DNA of 64,000 nt. Source: an uncultured Gemmatimonadales bacterium (lineage in GTDB: Bacteria > Gemmatimonadota > Gemmatimonadetes > Gemmatimonadales > GWC2-71-9). The notes below the pieces were generated by a model. That model searched no databases. It saw only the letters and a list, made by a program, of their open reading frames with translations, and was not told the origin of the DNA. A program made the position numbers and the translations under genes. The stretch spans positions 544,001-608,000 of the forward strand of contig CAWCFX010000006.1 in the NCBI GenBank assembly GCA_963795085.1. The letters run 5' to 3'. Numbering within the stretch: the stretch's first letter is position 1; every line of letters begins with the position of its first letter. Of this stretch, positions 325 to 10,197 are shown piece by piece.

Positions 325-1029
325 TTACAGCTCGAGGTGGGCCAGTTCCTTGCCGCGGGGAACCTCGATGGATCCGCCGGCTGGTTCCATGGTCAGGGCT
401 CCGCCGCGGACGGCGCGGGCGCCGGGCGGCATGTCCAGCATCAGCACCGCCGGATTGCGTTCATCGCAGATGACCTCGGCGCCGTGCACCATGCCGTCCG
501 CGGTGATGAACCAGAAGGTATAGCGCTCGCCGGCGGGCGCCGCGGGGATACCGTGGACCACCACTTTCCACCGGTGCGTCGTCTCGTCCGCGAAGATCAG
601 CATGCCTCCCTGTTTGCCGTCCATGGTGATGGAAGCCTGGAGGATGCGTTCCGCCTGCAGCACCGACAGCGTGTCCCGGGCGGCGGCGAGGTCCCTTTCC
701 AGCCGGTGGAGCTCCCCGCGCTGACGCAGCGCCGCGCCGGCGAGGGCCAGCGCGGCGAGCACGGCGGCGGCAAGCGCGGGAACCAGCCAGCGAGACCGGG
801 CCGGGCGCCGGGTCACCTGGTGCACGACCTCGCTGGTAAACCCGGGGCGCGGGGTCACCGGGGTGACGCCCATGGGAAGCCAGGCCAGGTCGCGTTCGGC
901 AGCGGCGACCGCGTCTCGGCAGTCACCGCAGTGCGCCAGATGCGCGTGGAACAGGCGCTCCTGTGCCGCGTCAAGGACCCGGGCGGCGAATTCGTCGCGG
1001 TGCTCGATATACCAGTCGTGGGTGCTCAT
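325..1029 (-). CDS. Anti-sigma factor (zinc-finger HxxxCxxC N-terminus, one TM helix, RskA-like C-terminal domain)
   Basis: HLAHCGDC motif, hydrophobic segment WLVPALAAAVLAALALAGAAL, C-terminal YTFWFI...ALTMEPAGGS..P; overlaps the sigma gene stop. Confidence 0.85.
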   Translation of the reverse strand: MSTHDWYIEHRDEFAARVLDAAQERLFHAHLAHCGDCRDAVAAAERDLAWLPMGVTPVTPRPGFTSEVVHQVTRRPARSRWLVPALAAAVLAALALAGAALRQRGELHRLERDLAAARDTLSVLQAERILQASITMDGKQGGMLIFADETTHRWKVVVHGIPAAPAGERYTFWFITADGMVHGAEVICDERNPAVLMLDMPPGARAVRGGALTMEPAGGSIEVPRGKELAHLEL

Positions 1030-1661
1030 ACGACCCAGTCCTTGAGTTCCGCCAGGCTGCCACGCAACCGGTCGAGAGCCAGACGCAGGCGGGTCTTCAC
1101 GGTTCCCAGGGGGATCGCCAGCCGCTCCGCCACTTCGGAATGGGAATGCCCCTCGAAGTAGGCCAGCCGGAGCGCCTGCTGCTGCTCCGCCGGCAGCTCG
1201 GCGACCGCCGAGTGGACGGCGGTATGCACGTGCCAGCCGGGAAGCGCGGCCTCGTTGGGTTCCGCCGCCGCCGTGAAGGTTTCCTGGCTGGCGGTCACCC
1301 GCTCCCCCAGCGACCAGCGGCGGCGGCGGGCCCGGAGCCGGTCAATTGCCCGGTTGCGGGCCACCTGCACCAGCCAGGCGAGCAGGCCGCGGGGGCCGTG
1401 GTCCGGCGGCGGCACTTTCTCCCAGGCGATTCGAAAGGTCTCCAGCACGATGTCCTCGGCCTCATCGGCGTCCCCCAGCATGGCCTGCACGATCCCCAGC
1501 AGCCAGGGCGAGAGCAGCTGCACCAGCTCAGCCAGCGCCTGCTCGTCCCGTGCCGCGAGCCGGGCACGTAGATCGTCCTCCCTCGCGTCGGTGATCAGGC
1601 GGGGGGTTCCCCGGCCCGGCGGCGTGCCGGTTCCGGCCTGGGAGTGGCGGGTGGAAGCCAT
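1026..1661 (-). CDS. ECF RNA polymerase sigma-70 factor (SigK/RpoE-like)
   Basis: Region 2 (AEDIVLETF..AW, WLVQVARNRAIDRLR) and region 4 (LPAEQQQALRLAYFEGHSHSEVAERLAIPLGTVKTRLR). Confidence 0.93.
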   Translation of the reverse strand: MASTRHSQAGTGTPPGRGTPRLITDAREDDLRARLAARDEQALAELVQLLSPWLLGIVQAMLGDADEAEDIVLETFRIAWEKVPPPDHGPRGLLAWLVQVARNRAIDRLRARRRRWSLGERVTASQETFTAAAEPNEAALPGWHVHTAVHSAVAELPAEQQQALRLAYFEGHSHSEVAERLAIPLGTVKTRLRLALDRLRGSLAELKDWVV

Positions 1662-1733: not shown

Positions 1734-3071
1734 CTACGACGCCGCGGTCGGGGCCGGCGGCGCTCCGCGGGCAATCGCGAAGGCCTTCTGCATGTGAGGG
1801 GGCATTTCGTCCGACTCGGGTGGTTCGCCCGCCGCGTCCATGATCTGGGTGAGGTCCACCCGGTCGTACCCGCCCGACAGCAGCACCACGAACCGCTCCC
1901 GGAGCAACGGGATCTGGCGGGCCCGGCTGATGATGTTGTTGGCGTCCTTCCGCTCCAGAATGCCGTACCAGTTGTAGATCATCTTGAAAATCGAATACAT
2001 CGGGTGCTTGATCCGGCGCTCGTAGGGCGCCAGCAGCTCGGCCGAGAACCGGTCCTGGCGGAAGCAGTCGAGAATACACTCCGAGGCGTACACCCCCCCC
2101 CGCATGGCCAGGGTCACCCCGGCCGAGAAGATCGGGTCGATGAACATCGAAGCATCCCCCACCAGGACGAAGCCGTCCCCCACGAACCGCTCGTTCAGGT
2201 AGGAGATGTTGGAAATAGTCTGCATCTCCATGGTCTGCTCCGCGCCGGCGACCCATTCGCGTACCCGGTCGCAGCTGGCGACCGCCTTGTCATAGCGCTC
2301 CTGGGGGGTATCGCCCAGGCTCTTGGCGAACTTGGCATCGAGCACCACGCCGACACTGACCACGTCGTCGGCGAGCGGGATGTACCAGACCCAGCCGCCA
2401 TCAATGGTATGGATGTCGGTGGTGGTCGAGGTGGGCATGATCTCGCCCACCGTCACCACTTCGGCCGGGTCCCGCCGGATGCCGCCCTTCACGTGGGTGA
2501 AATGAGAGATCTTGTTCAGCGTCGGATCCGGCTTGCGCCACCCCATCTTCCGGGCCACGAGGCAGTCCCTGCCGGAGGCATCCACCACCACCCGGGCGTT
2601 GATCCGGTGCGGTTCGGCGCCATTGGGCCCGGCCATCACGCCCACCGCCTGGTCCCCCTCGAAGACGACTTCCTTGACCGACCATTCCTCGCGAACCTCG
2701 GCGCCGCGCTTACGGGCGTGGTTCAGCAGGATCTCGTCAAACCGGGCCCGCTCCACGTGGTAGGTCCAGGGCCGCAGGAAACACTCCGGGTACTCGGCGG
2801 TCAGCAGTTTGACGTCTTCCTTCGCGTTGAACATCCCGAACATGATGCCCTGCTTGATGACAAACCCGGCCTGCTCGAGATCGGCCGAGATGCCGAGGCG
2901 TTCCCAGATTTCCCAGGCGCCGGGCAGCAGCGACTCGCCGATGTGGAAGCGGGGAAATTTCTCCCGCTCCAGCACCAGGACCTTGAGCCCTTCGGGCGCG
3001 AGCATGGCCGCCGTGCTGGAGCCGCCCGGGCCCCCGCCGATGACCACGACATCGAAAGTTTCCTGTTTCAT
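1734..3071 (-). CDS. Flavin-dependent halogenase (PltA/PrnC-like)
   Basis: GGGPGG FAD motif, FPRFHIGESLLP, putative catalytic Lys in GFVIKQG, WVWYIPL (WxWxIP), GDASMFIDPIFSAGV. Confidence 0.85.
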   Translation of the reverse strand: MKQETFDVVVIGGGPGGSSTAAMLAPEGLKVLVLEREKFPRFHIGESLLPGAWEIWERLGISADLEQAGFVIKQGIMFGMFNAKEDVKLLTAEYPECFLRPWTYHVERARFDEILLNHARKRGAEVREEWSVKEVVFEGDQAVGVMAGPNGAEPHRINARVVVDASGRDCLVARKMGWRKPDPTLNKISHFTHVKGGIRRDPAEVVTVGEIMPTSTTTDIHTIDGGWVWYIPLADDVVSVGVVLDAKFAKSLGDTPQERYDKAVASCDRVREWVAGAEQTMEMQTISNISYLNERFVGDGFVLVGDASMFIDPIFSAGVTLAMRGGVYASECILDCFRQDRFSAELLAPYERRIKHPMYSIFKMIYNWYGILERKDANNIISRARQIPLLRERFVVLLSGGYDRVDLTQIMDAAGEPPESDEMPPHMQKAFAIARGAPPAPTAAS

Positions 3072-4490: not shown

Positions 4491-5954
4491 TCAGAATTTC
4501 AGGGTGACTTCCGCGTACCCGAACTGCCCGGACCGGTCCGGGTAGATCGCCTGGACGACCTCGCCGGCAAACGCGTGGCCGGCATAGACGTGGAACGTGG
4601 CCAGGGCGCTGGGATCCCAGGTTACCCCGAGATCGACCAGGGTTGCCAACTGGGTTTCGCCGTTGGAGGGCCTGCCGCCGTACCCGAAGTTGCCCCGGCG
4701 GCGGAACGCGCCCGATCCGGCATACCAGAGATCGGCCGCCTCGGCGAGTTCCAGTTTTCGCAGGTCGGTCCGCAGGGATAGCTTGCCGGGCACCGGCCGG
4801 AGGATCGCCTGCAGGAACAGCTCCTTCGTGTTCATGGCATTGAAGAATGGAAACTGGGCATACTGCCGCACCGTGGTGAGCGCAGGGAAAAAGGTCCGGT
4901 GGGTGCCGTCCCCGGCATCGTCGTCGCCGGAGCCCTGGAAGTAGCCGGCGCGGATCCAGGGCCGCCAGGGCGCCCGTGGCTGGTAGCCAGCCTCGGCCGC
5001 GACGGCCCAGGCCCGATGCCGGAGCATACCCCACTCGCCGGTCTGCGCCGTTCCCCAGAGCATCAGGTCGGCGTCGCCACCTCCCAGCTTCATGGCGCGG
5101 GCGATGTGCCCCCCAAACATCGAGATGCCAATATCCTCTCCGTCGGCAGCCCGCGCCGGAGCGGGGCGGTTGTCTACTTTGGTCACCGTGTCCGCGGCAT
5201 TCCGGGAGTCACGGTAGCCGTAGAAGAAGAGGCGAACGTCGGTGCGGTCCAGCAGGGCACCCGGCTTGAGGGTAAGACTGCCGCCGCCGATCGATACTTC
5301 GCCGATCCGGTCCATGCCTTCCAGCTCGAAGCCGCCCTGCCGCGGATAGAGCAGAAGCGCAGTGGCATTAACGGGGCCCCGGGTGACCGAGGCCTGCCCC
5401 CCATCGAAGCTGCGTCCCCCGTGGCTGAAGGCGAAGGTCCCGATCAGCCGCGCGGAGAGCCGGACCCGCTTGAGCCAGTCAATCGTCGGATCCCCGCTCA
5501 TCACCTCGAGGCCGTCCAGGTATTCCATGCGGCCCAGCCGCAGAAACGTCTCGGGCCGGCTGGCGCGCAGCGTCACATACGCCTGGTTGAGAAATACCCG
5601 GCTGATATCCCGCTCCTGGTGCTGCGCGAAGTAGGTGGCCCCGAGTCCCAGGTCGCCGGCGGGCGGTGCAGCGGTCGCGTCATCGGGCAGGCCGAGCAAC
5701 GTGGAGTTCTGGAGATCCACCCGGGCATCCAGCCAGCGGGGCGCCCGGTAATTCAGCACCAGGTTGGTCCGGGCGGCCAGAAACCCGTAGCTGTTGTCAG
5801 CTGCGGACGCGGCGGGCTCGAACCAGTTCCATTGTTCGTACCGGACCCGGGAGGTCGCGTTCAGACGCACTTCATGGCGCGCCGGTGCCGGTGTCTGCGC
5901 CAGAGCCTGTCCGGCCAGGACACCCGCCATGGACAGCAACGCCAGGGTACGCAT
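4491..5954 (-). CDS. Outer-membrane beta-barrel, alginate-export (AlgE-like) family
   Basis: Signal peptide MRTLALLSMAGVLAGQALA, R-x-R-Y-E first strand, LNQAYV, RLGR.E, GRSFDG, GSGDDDAGDG, C-terminal YAEVTLKF; TGATG coupling with the ABC ATPase. Confidence 0.75.
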   Translation of the reverse strand: MRTLALLSMAGVLAGQALAQTPAPARHEVRLNATSRVRYEQWNWFEPAASAADNSYGFLAARTNLVLNYRAPRWLDARVDLQNSTLLGLPDDATAAPPAGDLGLGATYFAQHQERDISRVFLNQAYVTLRASRPETFLRLGRMEYLDGLEVMSGDPTIDWLKRVRLSARLIGTFAFSHGGRSFDGGQASVTRGPVNATALLLYPRQGGFELEGMDRIGEVSIGGGSLTLKPGALLDRTDVRLFFYGYRDSRNAADTVTKVDNRPAPARAADGEDIGISMFGGHIARAMKLGGGDADLMLWGTAQTGEWGMLRHRAWAVAAEAGYQPRAPWRPWIRAGYFQGSGDDDAGDGTHRTFFPALTTVRQYAQFPFFNAMNTKELFLQAILRPVPGKLSLRTDLRKLELAEAADLWYAGSGAFRRRGNFGYGGRPSNGETQLATLVDLGVTWDPSALATFHVYAGHAFAGEVVQAIYPDRSGQFGYAEVTLKF

Positions 5955-6793
5955 CAGCGGGCCCCCGTTGAACCAGGTGGAGCCTTCGGGTGGGTCGCTT
6001 CGTGCTGCTCTTCCAGCCGGTGGACCATGGTTTCCCAGGGGAGGGCCGATGGCGACAGGCCCAGCTCGGTCAGCACCCTCTCCTTGAGAGCCACCAGCAT
6101 GAGGCTGGACATGATCCGGGGCTGCGGAATATTTACTTCGACGACGCACTTGACCCGGCCGGGCCGAGGCGTCATGACATAGATCCGGTCGGCGAGGTGA
6201 AGAGCTTCCTCGACATCGTGGGTCACCAGCAGGCAGGTATGCCGGTCCTGCGCCAGGATGCGGAGGAGCTCGCCGCGCATCTTCATCTTGGTCAGTGCAT
6301 CCAGCGCCCCGAATGGCTCGTCCATGTAGAGCAGGTCAGGCTTGGCCATCAGGGCGCGGGCCACCTCCACCCGCTGCAGCATACCGCCGGAGAGCTCGTG
6401 GGGATAGCGGCCTTCGAAGCCTTCGAGGCCGACCAGTTCGATGTAGTGCCGGGTCAACCGCTGCCGCTCGGCATCCGGACTGCCGTTGAGTGCCAGCTCC
6501 AGGTTGCGGCCCACCGTCATCCACGGAAAGACCGACCCCCGCTGGGTGATCATGATACCCCGGCGGCTGGGCTCCCCCACCGGGCGGCCGCCCACCAGCA
6601 CCTCGCCCCGGTCCGGCTGGTCGAACCCGGCGATCATGTTGAGCAGGGTGGATTTGCCGCAGCCCGATGCGCCGACGATGGCGACGAACTCCCCGTCCGC
6701 CACGGTGAGCGACATGTCCTCGAGAGCGGAGATCTGGCCCTCCGAGGTGGGAAAAGTCTTGTAGACGCCCTGGACAGAAATACTAGCGCCCAT
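5954..6793 (-). CDS. ABC transporter ATP-binding protein, NitT/TauT family
   Basis: Walker A GASGCGKST, signature LSGGMLQR, Walker B YMDEPFGALD, VTHD. Confidence 0.95.
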   Translation of the reverse strand: MGASISVQGVYKTFPTSEGQISALEDMSLTVADGEFVAIVGASGCGKSTLLNMIAGFDQPDRGEVLVGGRPVGEPSRRGIMITQRGSVFPWMTVGRNLELALNGSPDAERQRLTRHYIELVGLEGFEGRYPHELSGGMLQRVEVARALMAKPDLLYMDEPFGALDALTKMKMRGELLRILAQDRHTCLLVTHDVEEALHLADRIYVMTPRPGRVKCVVEVNIPQPRIMSSLMLVALKERVLTELGLSPSALPWETMVHRLEEQHEATHPKAPPGSTGAR

Positions 6794-7529
6794 TGGCGTA
6801 CCTCCAGCGAACTTCTTTCAGGGTCTCCAGTTGGCGCATCAGGATATCCAGCAGGAACCCGATCACGCCGATGATCACCATGCCCGCGACCACGAGGTCA
6901 TAGCGCATCCCGGCATTCCGGGAGTCGATGATCAGGTATCCCAGCCCCGAATTGATGGCGACCATCTCGGCCGCAACCACCACCAGCCAGGCCACACCCA
7001 GCGCCACCCGCATTCCGGTAATGATCTGGGGAAGGGCCCCCGGGAAGATCACGGTGGTGAACAGCTTGAGCCCGGAAATGCCGAAATTCTTGGCGGCCCG
7101 GATGTACTGCCGCTCCACCAGGTGCACACCGGCCGTGGTGGACACCGCGATGGGGAAAAAGGAGGCCAGGAAGATCAGGAAGATGGGCGAGGCATCGCTG
7201 ACGCCGAACCAGAGGATCGCGAGCGGAATCCAGGCGATGGGCGAGATCGGCCGCAGCATCTGGATCAGGGGATTGAGCGCGCTGAAGGCCCGGCCGTACC
7301 AGCCCATGGCGATCCCGATGGGTACCGCGGTCAGCACCGCGAGACCGTAGCCGGCCGTCACCCGGTAGAGCGAGGCGGCGATATGCTGGGTCAGCGTGCC
7401 CTCTTCCCAGAGCGCACGGATCCCGGTCACCACCGCCAGCGGGGTCGGAAAGATGATGCTGCCGCTGGCCGCGATCCACCAGAGACCCAGCAGCGCGGCG
7501 ATGACCAGAACCGGCAGCAGCCGGTTCAT
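6783..7529 (-). CDS. ABC transporter permease, NitT/TauT family
   Basis: LRPISPIAWIPLAILWFG, EAA-like loop YIRAAKNFG, WLVVVAAEM..NSGLGYLI. Confidence 0.95.
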   Translation of the reverse strand: MNRLLPVLVIAALLGLWWIAASGSIIFPTPLAVVTGIRALWEEGTLTQHIAASLYRVTAGYGLAVLTAVPIGIAMGWYGRAFSALNPLIQMLRPISPIAWIPLAILWFGVSDASPIFLIFLASFFPIAVSTTAGVHLVERQYIRAAKNFGISGLKLFTTVIFPGALPQIITGMRVALGVAWLVVVAAEMVAINSGLGYLIIDSRNAGMRYDLVVAGMVIIGVIGFLLDILMRQLETLKEVRWRYANGR

Positions 7530-8695
7530 GGCAGCGACTGGCTGAGATCCACCGGCCTGGCGTTCTTCATGAACGTCTCGTCAATGTAGGTCTGGTAGGG
7601 GATCTCGTGGGTGATGATCCCGGCCTCCAGCGACAGCTTCATCAGTTCCTCGAATTCGGCGTGCACCAGGTTGAGGTCCCCGTAGGTCACCCGGTCCGCG
7701 GGCCGCTCCATCACCCAGCGGATCAGGTCGAAGGCCTGGTTGAACATGGACTTGTCCGACGCAATCCGGGCGGCCGTGACGCGGTTCTCCGGGCTGGTTT
7801 CCAGCCACTGCCCGGCCGCCAGCACGTGATCCACCAGCAACTGCACCGTCTCGGGATCTTCGTCAATCAGTTCCTGCCGCACCGTCAGGACGCAGCAGAT
7901 GTAGGTCGGCCATTCGTTCCGGGTCATGTGCAGGATCCGGGCGTAGCCGTCCATTTCCGAGCGGGCGCCGAACGGCTCCCCCGTGGCGTACGCATCCACC
8001 GCGTTGGCCAGCAGGGCGGCGGGCATGTCGGGCGGGGCGATCTCGACCATTTCGATGTCCGCATCCACCAGCCCGTGCTCACGCATCAGCCGGCGGACGA
8101 AGATATGGTCCACCGCGAACCGGCTGGGAATCGCCACCCGCTTCCCGCGGAGATCCCCGAAGGTGCGGTAGGGCGAGTCCTTCTTGACCATGATCACCGC
8201 GCCGGACCGGTGCCCCAGTGCCACCACCTTGACCGGGACCCCCTTGTCGGCCAGGTCCATTGCCATCGGCGCCAGCATCATGGCCACCTTGAGCCGCCCG
8301 GCCACCAGGGCCTCCTTCAACTCGGGCCACCCGCTGTAGCGGACATAGGTCGCGATCTGGGGCACCCGCGCGGCCAGCGACTCGGCCTGCTCCGCCGTGG
8401 GCATGTCCATCCCGGGCATTCCCGCCATGGGACCGCCCGAAGTGTCCATGCCATCCGCCATGTTGATCGGCTCACCTTCGGTCGTCATCGCCCTACAGGC
8501 GATCGGAATGGTGAGGTTTCAGGTAACCGGTAACGCGCCGATCTCGAGCAACTCGCCCGCGCCTTTGGTCGTCCCGGGGCGGTCCTGTCCCCGCCGGTAG
8601 GCGACCGTGATGAACAGGGCCCAGCCGAGAATTGCCGCGATCACCAGCGGCCTGCGGTACCGCTGCCAGTACCGGGAAATGCTTGCGCTCGCCAT
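7526..8695 (-). CDS. ABC substrate-binding protein (NMT1/NitT-type) with in-frame TGA at codon 59; candidate selenoprotein
   Basis: ORFs 8519-8785 and 7526-8488 share a frame and are separated only by TGA at 8519-8521 (..LEIGALPVT*NLTIPIACRAMTTEG..). The upstream part supplies the TM anchor; the downstream part has GWPELKEAL, DLRGKRVAIPSRF, GEPF and YICCVL. Confidence 0.75.
8487..8503 (-). promoter_or_regulatory. Candidate bacterial SECIS hairpin
   Basis: mRNA reads UGA-aaccucaccauuccg-AUCGCC-UGUAG-GGCGAU: a perfect 6-bp stem starting 15 nt after the UGA, with a G-containing apical loop. Confidence 0.6.
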
Positions 8696-8841
8696 GGGAG
8701 AGAAGCTCCAGTCCGCCGTAGTGTGCCCCCCGGGGAAGCAGGCCGCCATTGGCCCGCCCCAAGTCAAACCCAGATCCGCCGTCAAGGGGAACAGAGAAAG
8801 GGTACTGCCGCTACATGTTGCTTGCCAGCAACACCTTGCAG

Positions 8842-8871
8842 ACTATGGACGCCGGATGCTCGCCCTGTCAA
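8842..8871 (-). promoter_or_regulatory. Putative sigma70 promoter for the ABC/halogenase operon
   Basis: Minus strand TTGACA-N18-CATAGT in the divergent intergenic region. Confidence 0.45.
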
Positions 8872-8957
8872 CCTCGGGCCAGCCTTGCCCTGGGGCTCCG
8901 CACGAGGGGGGAGCGCCCGACCGGCCCGTTCAAAGCACAAAACATGCCTTCCGGGAG

Positions 8958-8986
8958 TTGGCCCGGGGTCGGGAGCGGGTGATATT
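8958..8986 (+). promoter_or_regulatory. Putative sigma70 promoter for the dehydrogenase/MBOAT operon
   Basis: TTGGCC-N17-GATATT about 60 nt upstream of ATG 9049. Confidence 0.35.
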
Positions 8987-9048
8987 TCCGGTACGAACCC
9001 TGCTCCAGCCAGTGTCGGCTTTCTTCTCAATTCTCCCCGAGGCCCTCC

Positions 9049-10197
9049 ATGGATTTCTCCTGGTCGAGCGAACAGCTCGAGTTCAGGCAGACGGTCGTTG
9101 ATTTCGCGCGGAAAGCCCTCCAGGACGACCTGATCGCGCGGGACCGGTCGGCGACGTTTTCCCGCCCGCTCTGGAGCCGTTTGGGGGAGTTCGGCATCCT
9201 GGGCCTGCCCTTTCCCGAAGAATTCGGCGGGGCGGGCAGCGATATCCTGACCACCATCCTGGCGATGGAGGCCCTGGGCTACGGGTGCAAGGACAACGGC
9301 CTGCTCTTCGGCATCGCGGCCCAGATGTGGAGCGTCCAGATGCCGATCTTCAAGTTCGGCACCCCGGAAGCCCGGGCAAAGTACCTGCCCCGCCTCAATT
9401 CGGGAGAATGGATCGGGGCCCACGGGATGAGCGAGCCCGACAGCGGGTCGGACGCATTTGCGCTGCGGACCACCGCCGACCGGCGGGGCGACAGCTATGT
9501 CCTCAACGGCACCAAGACCTTCGTCAGCAACGGTCCCTCGGCGGATCTCTTCCTGGTATTTGCCACCCTGGACCGGACCAAGGGTTTCCTGGGCCTCACC
9601 GGCTTCCTGGTCGAGCGCACGACCCCCGGCCTCAAGGTGAGCAAGGAGATCGAGAAGATGGGGCTGCGCACCTCCCCGATGGCCGAGGTGATCATGGAGG
9701 ATTGCGTCATCCCGGTGGAGAACCGGATCGGGCGGGAGGGGCGCGGAGGGGCGGTCTTCAACGATTCCATGGAATGGGAGCGGGGCTGTATCCTCGCCAG
9801 CTACCTCGGGTCCATGGAACGCCAGCTGGAGTCCTGCGTGCGCCATTCCCAGGAGCGGAAACAGTTCGGCCAGGCGATCGGCCAGTTCCAGTCGGTGGCC
9901 AACAAGATGGTGGACATGAAAGTGCGGCTGGAGACGGCCCGCCTCATCCTGTACAAGGCGGCGTGGAGCAAACAGCAGCAGGGCAAGCATGCCGGTGAGG
10001 ACGCGGCGATTGCCAAGCTCTATCTCAGCGAAGCGTGGGTCAAATCCTGCCTCGATGCCGTCCAGATCCATGGAGGCTATGGATTCACAACCGAGTACGA
10101 GGTCGAGCGGGACCTCCGGGATTCCATCGGCGGTACCCTCTACTCGGGGACATCGGAGATCCAGCGGACCCTGATCGCGCGGCAGCTCGGGTTGTAG
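9049..10197 (+). CDS. L-prolyl-[carrier protein] dehydrogenase (acyl-CoA dehydrogenase family, PltE/RedW/AnaB-like)
   Basis: ACAD fold (SEPDSGSD, LNGTKTFVSNG, KMGLR, RKQFGQAIGQFQ) plus subfamily hallmarks recognised from AnaB/PltE: MDFSW start, LGYGCKDNGL, FNDSMEWER, and YSGTSEIQ instead of YEGT. Confidence 0.82.
   Translation: MDFSWSSEQLEFRQTVVDFARKALQDDLIARDRSATFSRPLWSRLGEFGILGLPFPEEFGGAGSDILTTILAMEALGYGCKDNGLLFGIAAQMWSVQMPIFKFGTPEARAKYLPRLNSGEWIGAHGMSEPDSGSDAFALRTTADRRGDSYVLNGTKTFVSNGPSADLFLVFATLDRTKGFLGLTGFLVERTTPGLKVSKEIEKMGLRTSPMAEVIMEDCVIPVENRIGREGRGGAVFNDSMEWERGCILASYLGSMERQLESCVRHSQERKQFGQAIGQFQSVANKMVDMKVRLETARLILYKAAWSKQQQGKHAGEDAAIAKLYLSEAWVKSCLDAVQIHGGYGFTTEYEVERDLRDSIGGTLYSGTSEIQRTLIARQLGL

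Follow-up and report, generated by a model that had tools for sequence, protein, structure and literature searches.

Does the TGA that interrupts the gene of a substrate-binding protein in this stretch of DNA end the protein, or does it encode selenocysteine (Sec)? The stretch analysed here, referred to as the window, comprises 64,000 nt of an uncultured Gemmatimonadales bacterium (contig CAWCFX010000006.1), and the gene in question belongs to an ATP-binding cassette (ABC) transporter whose genes all lie on the minus strand. An initial annotation had proposed that two neighboring open reading frames (ORFs) form one Sec-containing solute-binding protein and that a hairpin just downstream of the TGA serves as a Sec insertion sequence (SECIS). 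The evidence assembled here supports that proposal: codon 59 of the gene very probably specifies Sec, and the product would be one 389-residue, membrane-anchored binding protein of a NitT/TauT-type ABC importer. It is also probable, if less firmly so, that this selenoprotein carries a metal-type site, and copper is its slightly favored cargo.

A single frame divided by one TGA

The full-length gene (7526..8695, minus strand) runs as a single frame from the ATG at 8695 to the stop at 7528-7526 and gives 389 residues when the TGA is translated as U, which is the length that had been predicted. The TGA at 8519..8521 on the same strand, read as Sec codon 59 in the context LEIGALPVT-U-NLTIPIAC, is the sole interruption of this frame; in the ORF list the two halves stand as separate entries, 8519..8785 and 7526..8488, and both the sequence and its translation confirm that they are one frame split at this codon. 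Within the 58 residues that precede the TGA, the translation contains a hydrophobic helix (residues ~17-37, LVIAAILGWALFITVAY; 8585..8647, minus strand), and AlphaFold2 places a long helix at residues 5-37 with a predicted local distance difference test score (pLDDT) of 92-95. According to this model the helix is likely a membrane anchor of the signal-anchor type, and relatives carry anchors or lipobox-like leaders at the same position. The ORF that follows the TGA encodes 320 residues, begins MTTEGEP and has no hydrophobic leader, so the earlier argument that the binding protein has neither export signal nor anchor without readthrough holds: the N-terminal anchor is joined to the binding domain only if the TGA is read through.

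TGA and cysteine codons at the same column of homologs

The conservation of this column was examined in proteins and in genomic loci. Of the 5239 relatives that a protein search returned, the list of matches comprised the best 120 (119 non-self); 46 of these 119, namely all that cover at least 85% of the query and a spread of shorter ones, were aligned with it. The column is covered by 23 of the 46, and every one of them (23/23) has Cys there. In the remaining 23 the protein starts downstream of the column, and 21 of these start precisely at the codon-70 Met, whose ATG is the first to follow the TGA, a pattern that we read as the signature of gene callers halting at a conserved TGA. A scan of one genome per species yielded at least 587 relatives, and among the 79 loci retained from it the codon is TGA in 22 and TGC or TGT (Cys) in 57, the latter amounting to 58 copies because L024 has two. 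The homologs thus bear out what the initial annotation expected of a Sec position, since Cys occupies LPVT-x in all 23 covering database proteins and in all 58 non-TGA copies, with neither Trp nor Arg in any.

The TGA loci are L007-L019, L022, L023, L025, L026, L037, L058, L074, L075 and L080. They represent 21 genomes, as L018 and L019 share a contig, and together with the window itself they make up the 23 TGA forms referred to below. Their taxon labels comprise Gemmatimonadota, Rokuibacteriota, Binatia, Verrucomicrobiia and Thermodesulfobacteriota as well as a deltaproteobacterial, a Vicinamibacterales-labelled and an unclassified metagenome-assembled genome (MAG). The recurrence of the TGA at the same column in 22 loci from other species and several phyla also disposes of the concern that it arose as a sequencing error. 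Two of the loci (L008 and L016) lie in genomes flagged as unpublished, and excluding both leaves TGA in 20 of 77. In an even sample of the phylum, 3 of 301 genomes carry the gene (E <= 1e-60, the window's genome included), each with one TGA inside it; the gene is single-copy in the source genome.

On both sides of the TGA the motif G-[AG]-LPVT-x-NLT-x-P-[IV]-A is kept, and the third codon positions upstream are variable. This constancy of the peptide in spite of varying upstream third positions indicates that both halves are under protein-level selection in one frame. A quick IQ-TREE tree, rooted by midpoint only, implies at least three changes between Sec and Cys and places the Sec forms in its deep, multi-phylum part; the 52 Pseudomonadota-type copies form a pure Cys clade, to which the Sec form L080 is sister. 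Paralogous binding-protein pairs were also seen: the two copies of L024 (3830-4939 and 6028-7416) lie in one operon and both have Cys, and the L018 and L019 paralogs lie ~6 kb apart and both have Sec.

A hairpin confined to the TGA forms

The hairpin described in the initial annotation was recovered from the sequence exactly as claimed, as a perfect stem AUCGCC/GGCGAU with the loop UGUAG that begins 15 nt after the TGA. In the window it occupies 8487..8503 (minus strand), with arms ATCGCC (8503-8498) and GGCGAT (8492-8487) around the loop TGTAG (8497-8493), so that six base pairs enclose five loop nucleotides, the second and third of which are G and U. The first three loop bases also serve as the TGT codon of Cys67 (8495..8497, minus strand), which closes the U-x7-C motif as its second conserved Cys. 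A 15-nt spacer, AACCTCACCATTCCG (8504..8518, minus strand), separates the TGA from the hairpin, and its first 8-9 bases are nearly invariant in the TGA forms only.

Scored at this fixed register, all six pairs are present in 23 of 23 TGA forms vs 1 of 58 Cys copies (Fisher p = 2.5e-19, uncorrected for relatedness). The single Cys copy with six pairs, L021, has the loop TGCAT without GU, so that the complete hairpin plus GU loop is found in 23/23 TGA forms and 0/58 Cys copies; the loop consensus N-G-T-N-N likewise holds in all 23. RNAalifold, applied to 18 of the 23 TGA forms, returns exactly this 6-bp hairpin, with A-U or G-U as its first pair (12 and 6 sequences), and L080 shows one compensatory change, ATTGCC/GGCAAT, in which C-G is replaced by U-A. 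Codon choice around the TGA follows the same division. The Asn60 codon is AAC in 23/23 TGA forms vs 25/58 Cys copies, the Leu61 codon is CTC in 22/23 vs 26/58, and the Cys67 codon is TGT in 20/20 TGA forms having Cys there vs 19/58 Cys copies. Where the peptide P[IV]ACMAM is identical, it is encoded as GCC-TGT-ATG-GCG in 6/6 Sec forms, which creates the perfect stem and GU loop, and as GCC-TGC-ATG-GCC in 3/3 Cys forms.

These observations support the hairpin as an RNA element that would be under selection only where the codon is TGA. Over 66 nt, the mean minimum free energy is -20.6 in TGA forms vs -22.5 in Cys forms and does not separate the groups; the folding energy of the whole region being uninformative, the specific hairpin was scored, and it is by comparison only that it becomes significant. 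The family shows no conserved extension of the stem at its lower end. The element resembles the SECIS of Escherichia coli fdhF in being a hairpin within the coding sequence, at a fixed short distance 3′ of the UGA and with G-U in its apical loop, and differs from it in its shorter stem (6 bp) and in having no conserved bulge; counted from the U of the UGA, its loop GU lies at 26-27 nt, roughly one codon more distant than in fdhF. Such a hairpin would direct the decoding of the UGA, presumably as the binding site of SelB-GTP-Sec-tRNA(Sec). The clean division between Sec and Cys forms with matched peptides offers a natural test set for the minimal rules of bacterial SECIS elements.

Selenium machinery

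A search for selA, selB, selC and selD, which the initial annotation had suggested as a check, found all four in the source genome (93% complete): SelA at 432 bits, SelB, one tRNA-SeC with anticodon TCA, and a SelD that has an in-frame TGA of its own (SHGAG-U-ACK; L003 position 1531). Two hairpins follow the SelD TGA, the second with a GGUCC-type, GU-containing loop. Across genomes, SelA is present in 18 of 21 with a TGA form vs 8 of 24 with a Cys form (24 of the 57 Cys-form loci having been sampled), and this co-occurrence gives a Fisher p of 3.3e-4 when the window's genome is added (19/22 vs 8/24); as the genomes compared are MAGs, the absences of SelA are soft.

Fold, family and a candidate metal site

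The binding protein matches the Pfam family NMT1_2 (PF13379) with 111 bits against a gathering score of 24.7, and more weakly NMT1 and phosphonate-binding models. Its best NCBIfam model, SsuA_fam (TIGR01728), reaches 117 bits, below the cut-off of 163.5, and the protein is for that reason not taken as a sulfonate-binding equivalog. The gene adjoins that of an ABC permease (6783..7529, minus strand; BPD_transp_1), whose start overlaps the binding-protein stop in the sequence ATGA, and this in turn is followed by an ABC ATPase gene (5954..6793, minus strand; ABC_tran). Both are intact, as had been noted. With its family score, its type II fold and the adjacent permease and ATPase, the protein is the binding protein of a NitT/TauT-type ABC importer.

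An AlphaFold2 model built from a 47-sequence alignment has a mean pLDDT of 86.9 and places residue 59 directly after strand 50-54 and before helix 62-69. The earlier placement of the site just after the first beta-strand is thereby upheld, whereas its placement at the ligand cleft is an expectation from the fold family. After the motif comes a Met-rich, poorly ordered insert (residues ~70-110, MADGMD...GMPGMDMP; 8366..8488, minus strand), visible in the translation and in the model, where residues 78-99 are disordered with pLDDT below 50. The top Foldseek match is PDB 3UN6 (E 6.5e-26, TM 0.90 on target), followed by NrtA, CmpA, SsuA and TauA. A profile search against 3UN6 gives 139 bits, with the common motifs WP-L--AL-SGR, ALGH, EPFGA and CCVL; neither the profile nor an insert-less homolog yielded a sequence alignment of the N-terminal motif region around U59 to 3UN6. 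This ligand-binding component of a Staphylococcus aureus ABC importer, with zinc bound, is the closest solved relative by both fold and sequence and differs from the window protein in its 23% identity, its lack of Sec and zinc as the metal of the crystal.

Residues that are invariant among the homologs include H162 (ALGHRSG), the U/C59-x7-C67 motif and the pair C267-C268 (YICCVL; 7892..7897, minus strand), the last in alignments of both 18 and 47 sequences. In two papers, NitT/TauT binding proteins like 3UN6 that are encoded beside clade B CO dehydrogenases are considered probable metal binders (PMC6344411, PMC13592312), and in one of the two the proposed site consists of two Cys and one or two His. 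Because of the kinship with 3UN6, of where residue 59 sits and of the part of this fold in which such loops are generally found, we infer a thiolate/selenolate metal site, and metal binding by these Sec and Cys residues is likely. In such a site the selenolate, Cys67, the Cys267-Cys268 pair and probably His162 would hold a soft metal in the ligand cleft.

Comparison with known selenoproteins

The first ABC transporter subunits reported to contain Sec were SaoB, SaoP and SaoX (Haft & Gwadz, bioRxiv 10.1101/2022.07.06.499078). That preprint describes SaoB as having a CU motif and an amino-acid-type fold, SaoP as carrying Sec at its gate, and SaoX as an SsuA-like lipoprotein for which one species shows Sec, within a TU motif spanning residues 191-192. 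SaoX (NF040735) is alike in fold class and in its conserved Cys residues, which include a CC pair proposed as a metal site, and a few of its members carry Sec; the window protein scores only 61 bits against its cut-off of 300, and its Sec, common in the family, stands right after the first strand (U-x7-C) rather than at residues 191-192. SaoB (NF040727) is likewise an ABC substrate-binding selenoprotein whose Sec is proposed as a metal ligand, but by its description it is kin to amino-acid-type binding proteins (PDB 3VVE, 4ZV2) and has an adjacent CU dipeptide; no SaoB match was listed for the window protein in the NCBIfam search. The window protein resembles SaoX and SaoB in using Sec as a presumed metal ligand but is a member of neither family.

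The best NCBIfam match of the permease is SaoP (183 bits vs a cut-off of 295), and the ATPase matches ntrCD (218 bits) and SaoA (198 bits vs a cut-off of 360); the SaoP gate carries Sec or Cys, whereas the window's permease has no Cys and no Sec anywhere in its sequence. The SAO nine-gene context was not seen in the window, although no search used the dedicated models of SaoL, SaoE, SaoC, SaoT or SaoD, and a porin, flavoenzymes and an extracytoplasmic function (ECF) sigma factor are the neighbors instead. The hosts also differ, being soil-type MAGs here and strict anaerobes in the account of SAO (10.1101/2022.07.06.499078).

This Sec-containing ABC substrate-binding protein family is not described in the literature that we searched, which contained neither a Sec-containing NMT1-type binding protein nor an ABC copper importer with Sco or PCuAC. 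The table of a 2026 selenoproteome review, for instance, includes SaoX, SaoB and a BtuF selenoprotein, and its main text uses none of the terms NMT1, sulfonate, PF13379, PF09084 or TIGR01728 (PMC13188914); the main text of the BSepDB paper mentions no ABC transporter (PMC13326102). Sec in extracytoplasmic binding proteins was unknown before SAO, and the family found here would be a second, independent case, from soil-type bacteria. It also provides an example of the systematic mis-annotation of selenoproteins, since the 21 of 46 aligned homologs that begin at the codon-70 ATG have put the transporter family on record with neither its export signal nor its first ligand loop.

Genomic context and the case for copper

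The genes around the related loci point toward copper. A SCO1/SenC gene lies on the gene's strand and inside the operon in 59 of the 79 loci, a cupredoxin-like ORF in 55 and PCuAC in 8; among the 22 Sec loci, Sco is present in six. The occurrence of genes for Sco/PCuAC copper delivery inside the transporter operon of most relatives ties the family to copper handling. The cupredoxin-like ORF, located between the genes of Sco and the permease, encodes a small exported protein whose tail follows the pattern C-x2-H-x4-M (FAC-x-x-H-x-SG-x-M/L-T-[IV]-VV); examples are L066 5520-5978, L033 5525-5974, L046 5622-6131 and L026 6227-6718, and two of four copies tested gave weak, sub-threshold matches to Copper-bind (plastocyanin/azurin).

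Of the 20 loci without Sco, two are too short to tell (L062, L074) and the other 18 form the Gemmatimonadota-type clade (L007-L023 and L028). In this clade, which includes the window, a Met-rich insert follows the motif in place of a Sco neighbor, and within the 65-residue insert stretch the median Met count is 9 in proteins without a Sco neighbor vs 3 in those with one. The Met-rich loop of this clade would take on the capture role that falls to separate SCO1/SenC, PCuAC and cupredoxin-like proteins in the other clades. Taken together, the Sco, cupredoxin-like and PCuAC neighbors and the Met-rich insert make copper uptake the best functional guess, and copper as the cargo is, on this genomic evidence, somewhat more probable than not.

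According to passages of a 2020 review, high-affinity copper import across the inner membrane has been analysed in few cases only, and the routes named are CcoA-type major facilitator superfamily transporters, CopD/YcnJ and chalkophores (PMC7558416); no binding-protein-dependent ABC copper importer is described in 12 of the 26 matching passages, those shown from its copper-import section. A paper on the beta-proteobacterial copper proteome contains no word beginning with "ABC" (PMC6769254). Should the copper link prove true, the transporter would be a concrete candidate, open to testing, for a high-affinity importer of copper at the inner membrane.

Alternative explanations

One alternative is that the TGA is a true stop, leaving a 58-residue membrane peptide and a leaderless 320-residue protein that starts from the codon-70 ATG, as a split gene or a decaying pseudogene. 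Gene callers do annotate it in this way, as the database homologs starting at that ATG show, and the gene's own terminator is also TGA. The binding domain would, however, lose its first beta-strand and the conserved LPVT-x-NLT-P-AC motif, and its 320-residue product would have no export signal. A stop is also hard to reconcile with a TGA that recurs at a single column in 22 loci of several phyla, where the protein is conserved to either side and the other homologs have Cys, with the hairpin and the frozen synonymous sites, which are confined to the TGA forms, and with the co-occurrence of those forms with SelA; we consider a true stop very improbable. Still more improbable, to the point of being scarcely credible, is that the TGA was introduced during sequencing or assembly, or that a different genetic code gives TGA a sense meaning such as Trp or Gly. 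A single-base change from TGC or TGT to TGA could occur in any one assembly, but the same TGA is found in 21 other genomes. When four soil-metagenome runs were compared, one contig of X1 covered 8328-8551 with no difference from the window and the other three runs gave no coverage, although X1 may be the source sample and its contig is therefore not independent support. A reassigned code is contradicted by Cys, not Trp or Gly, in the homologs, by the TGA that terminates the binding-protein gene itself, and by the dedicated tRNA-SeC with anticodon TCA.

A more far-reaching reading, which we advance only tentatively and judge rather less probable than even, holds that the transporter is the first dedicated binding-protein-dependent ABC copper importer, in which a periplasm-exposed selenolate and Cys cluster would capture Cu(I); that Sec is older and Cys replaced it several times (in Longimicrobium, an Armatimonadota-like group and the large Pseudomonadota clade); and that the Met-rich loop arose in evolution as an integral replacement for the Sco, PCuAC and cupredoxin-like helpers. 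Several points weigh against the reading that we favor, a selenoprotein with a metal-type site and copper as its more probable cargo. The hairpin is short; the local fold of 81 nt is not unusually stable (z = -0.74, with 47 of 200 shuffles folding as well), and an Rfam search to E 10 gave chance-level matches only and no SECIS family. Counts across the TGA forms are not independent, because most of these sit in one part of the tree, and the quick tree needs only 3 Sec/Cys changes. Ser (AGT) replaces Cys67 in three Sec forms (L058 4127, L074 689, L075 1360) and leaves the loop GU intact; a protein with Sec may be able to do without Cys67, or the demands of the RNA may take precedence over it. 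That U59, C67, H162 and C267/C268 lie close to one another is an expectation from the fold family, and the metal bound in the solved relative 3UN6 is zinc, not copper. The window's own operon contains no Sco or PCuAC gene, and the neighbors that it does have, an AlgE-like porin and two halogenase-like flavoenzymes, are unexplained by copper. Moreover, Sco and PCuAC normally serve the assembly of periplasmic copper sites such as CuA (PMC7558416), not import.

In another alternative the selenoprotein is real and its cargo is not copper but a different soft metal (zinc, nickel, cadmium, mercury or, as proposed for SAO, an organometal) or else an anion or some small molecule connected with the halogenase-like enzymes, for example halide. 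Besides the zinc deposited in 3UN6, nickel or zinc has been proposed for the relatives linked to CO dehydrogenase (PMC6344411, PMC13592312). The permease has SaoP as its best NCBIfam match and the ATPase matches SaoA; the NitT/TauT relatives among the Foldseek matches carry anions; and the transporter has halogenase-like neighbors in the window and at 9 of the 79 related loci, while in L011 an ATPase and a halogenase-like domain share one ORF. A pocket lined by Sec and Cys is nevertheless an unlikely halide site, and an SAO-type cargo is opposed by SAO scores that are all far below their cut-offs and by a permease without the gate Cys or Sec. For non-copper cargoes in general, the dominant neighbors of the family (Sco, the cupredoxin-like protein and PCuAC, at the frequencies given above) speak against them, as do the MxM-rich loops, which are typical Cu(I) motifs. 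We regard a cargo other than copper as a real possibility but one that, on balance, falls short of being probable.

Neighboring genes in the window

Directly after the ATPase gene comes a gene for an AlgE/Alginate_exp-like outer-membrane barrel (4491-~5950, minus strand; 68 bits), a relative of which is present in only one of the 79 related loci (L072). As listed, its ORF overlaps the ATPase gene by ~200 nt, so its true start probably lies further in. Further downstream of the transporter are two flavin-dependent halogenase-like genes (1734-3071 and 3121-~4470, both minus strand), with Trp_halogenase scores of 127 and 86 bits; a WxWxIP-type motif (GWVWYIP) is present in the first, and the second shows only GWAWHII. 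In locus L011, one 710-residue ORF (5900-8029, plus strand) carries an ABC ATPase domain and, after it, a halogenase-like FAD (flavin adenine dinucleotide) domain; the two may be truly fused, or a stop or frameshift may have gone unrecognised. At the corresponding position, L012-L014 show halogenase-like matches within long open frames.

Divergent from the transporter operon is an acyl-CoA dehydrogenase gene (9049..10197, plus strand). A 429-residue minus-strand ORF at 8782..10071 has no family match and was rejected as a shadow of this gene. The run of same-strand genes that contains the transporter ends, on its far side, with an ECF sigma factor and an anti-sigma factor of the RskA type (325-1661, minus strand), a pair that might regulate the cluster.

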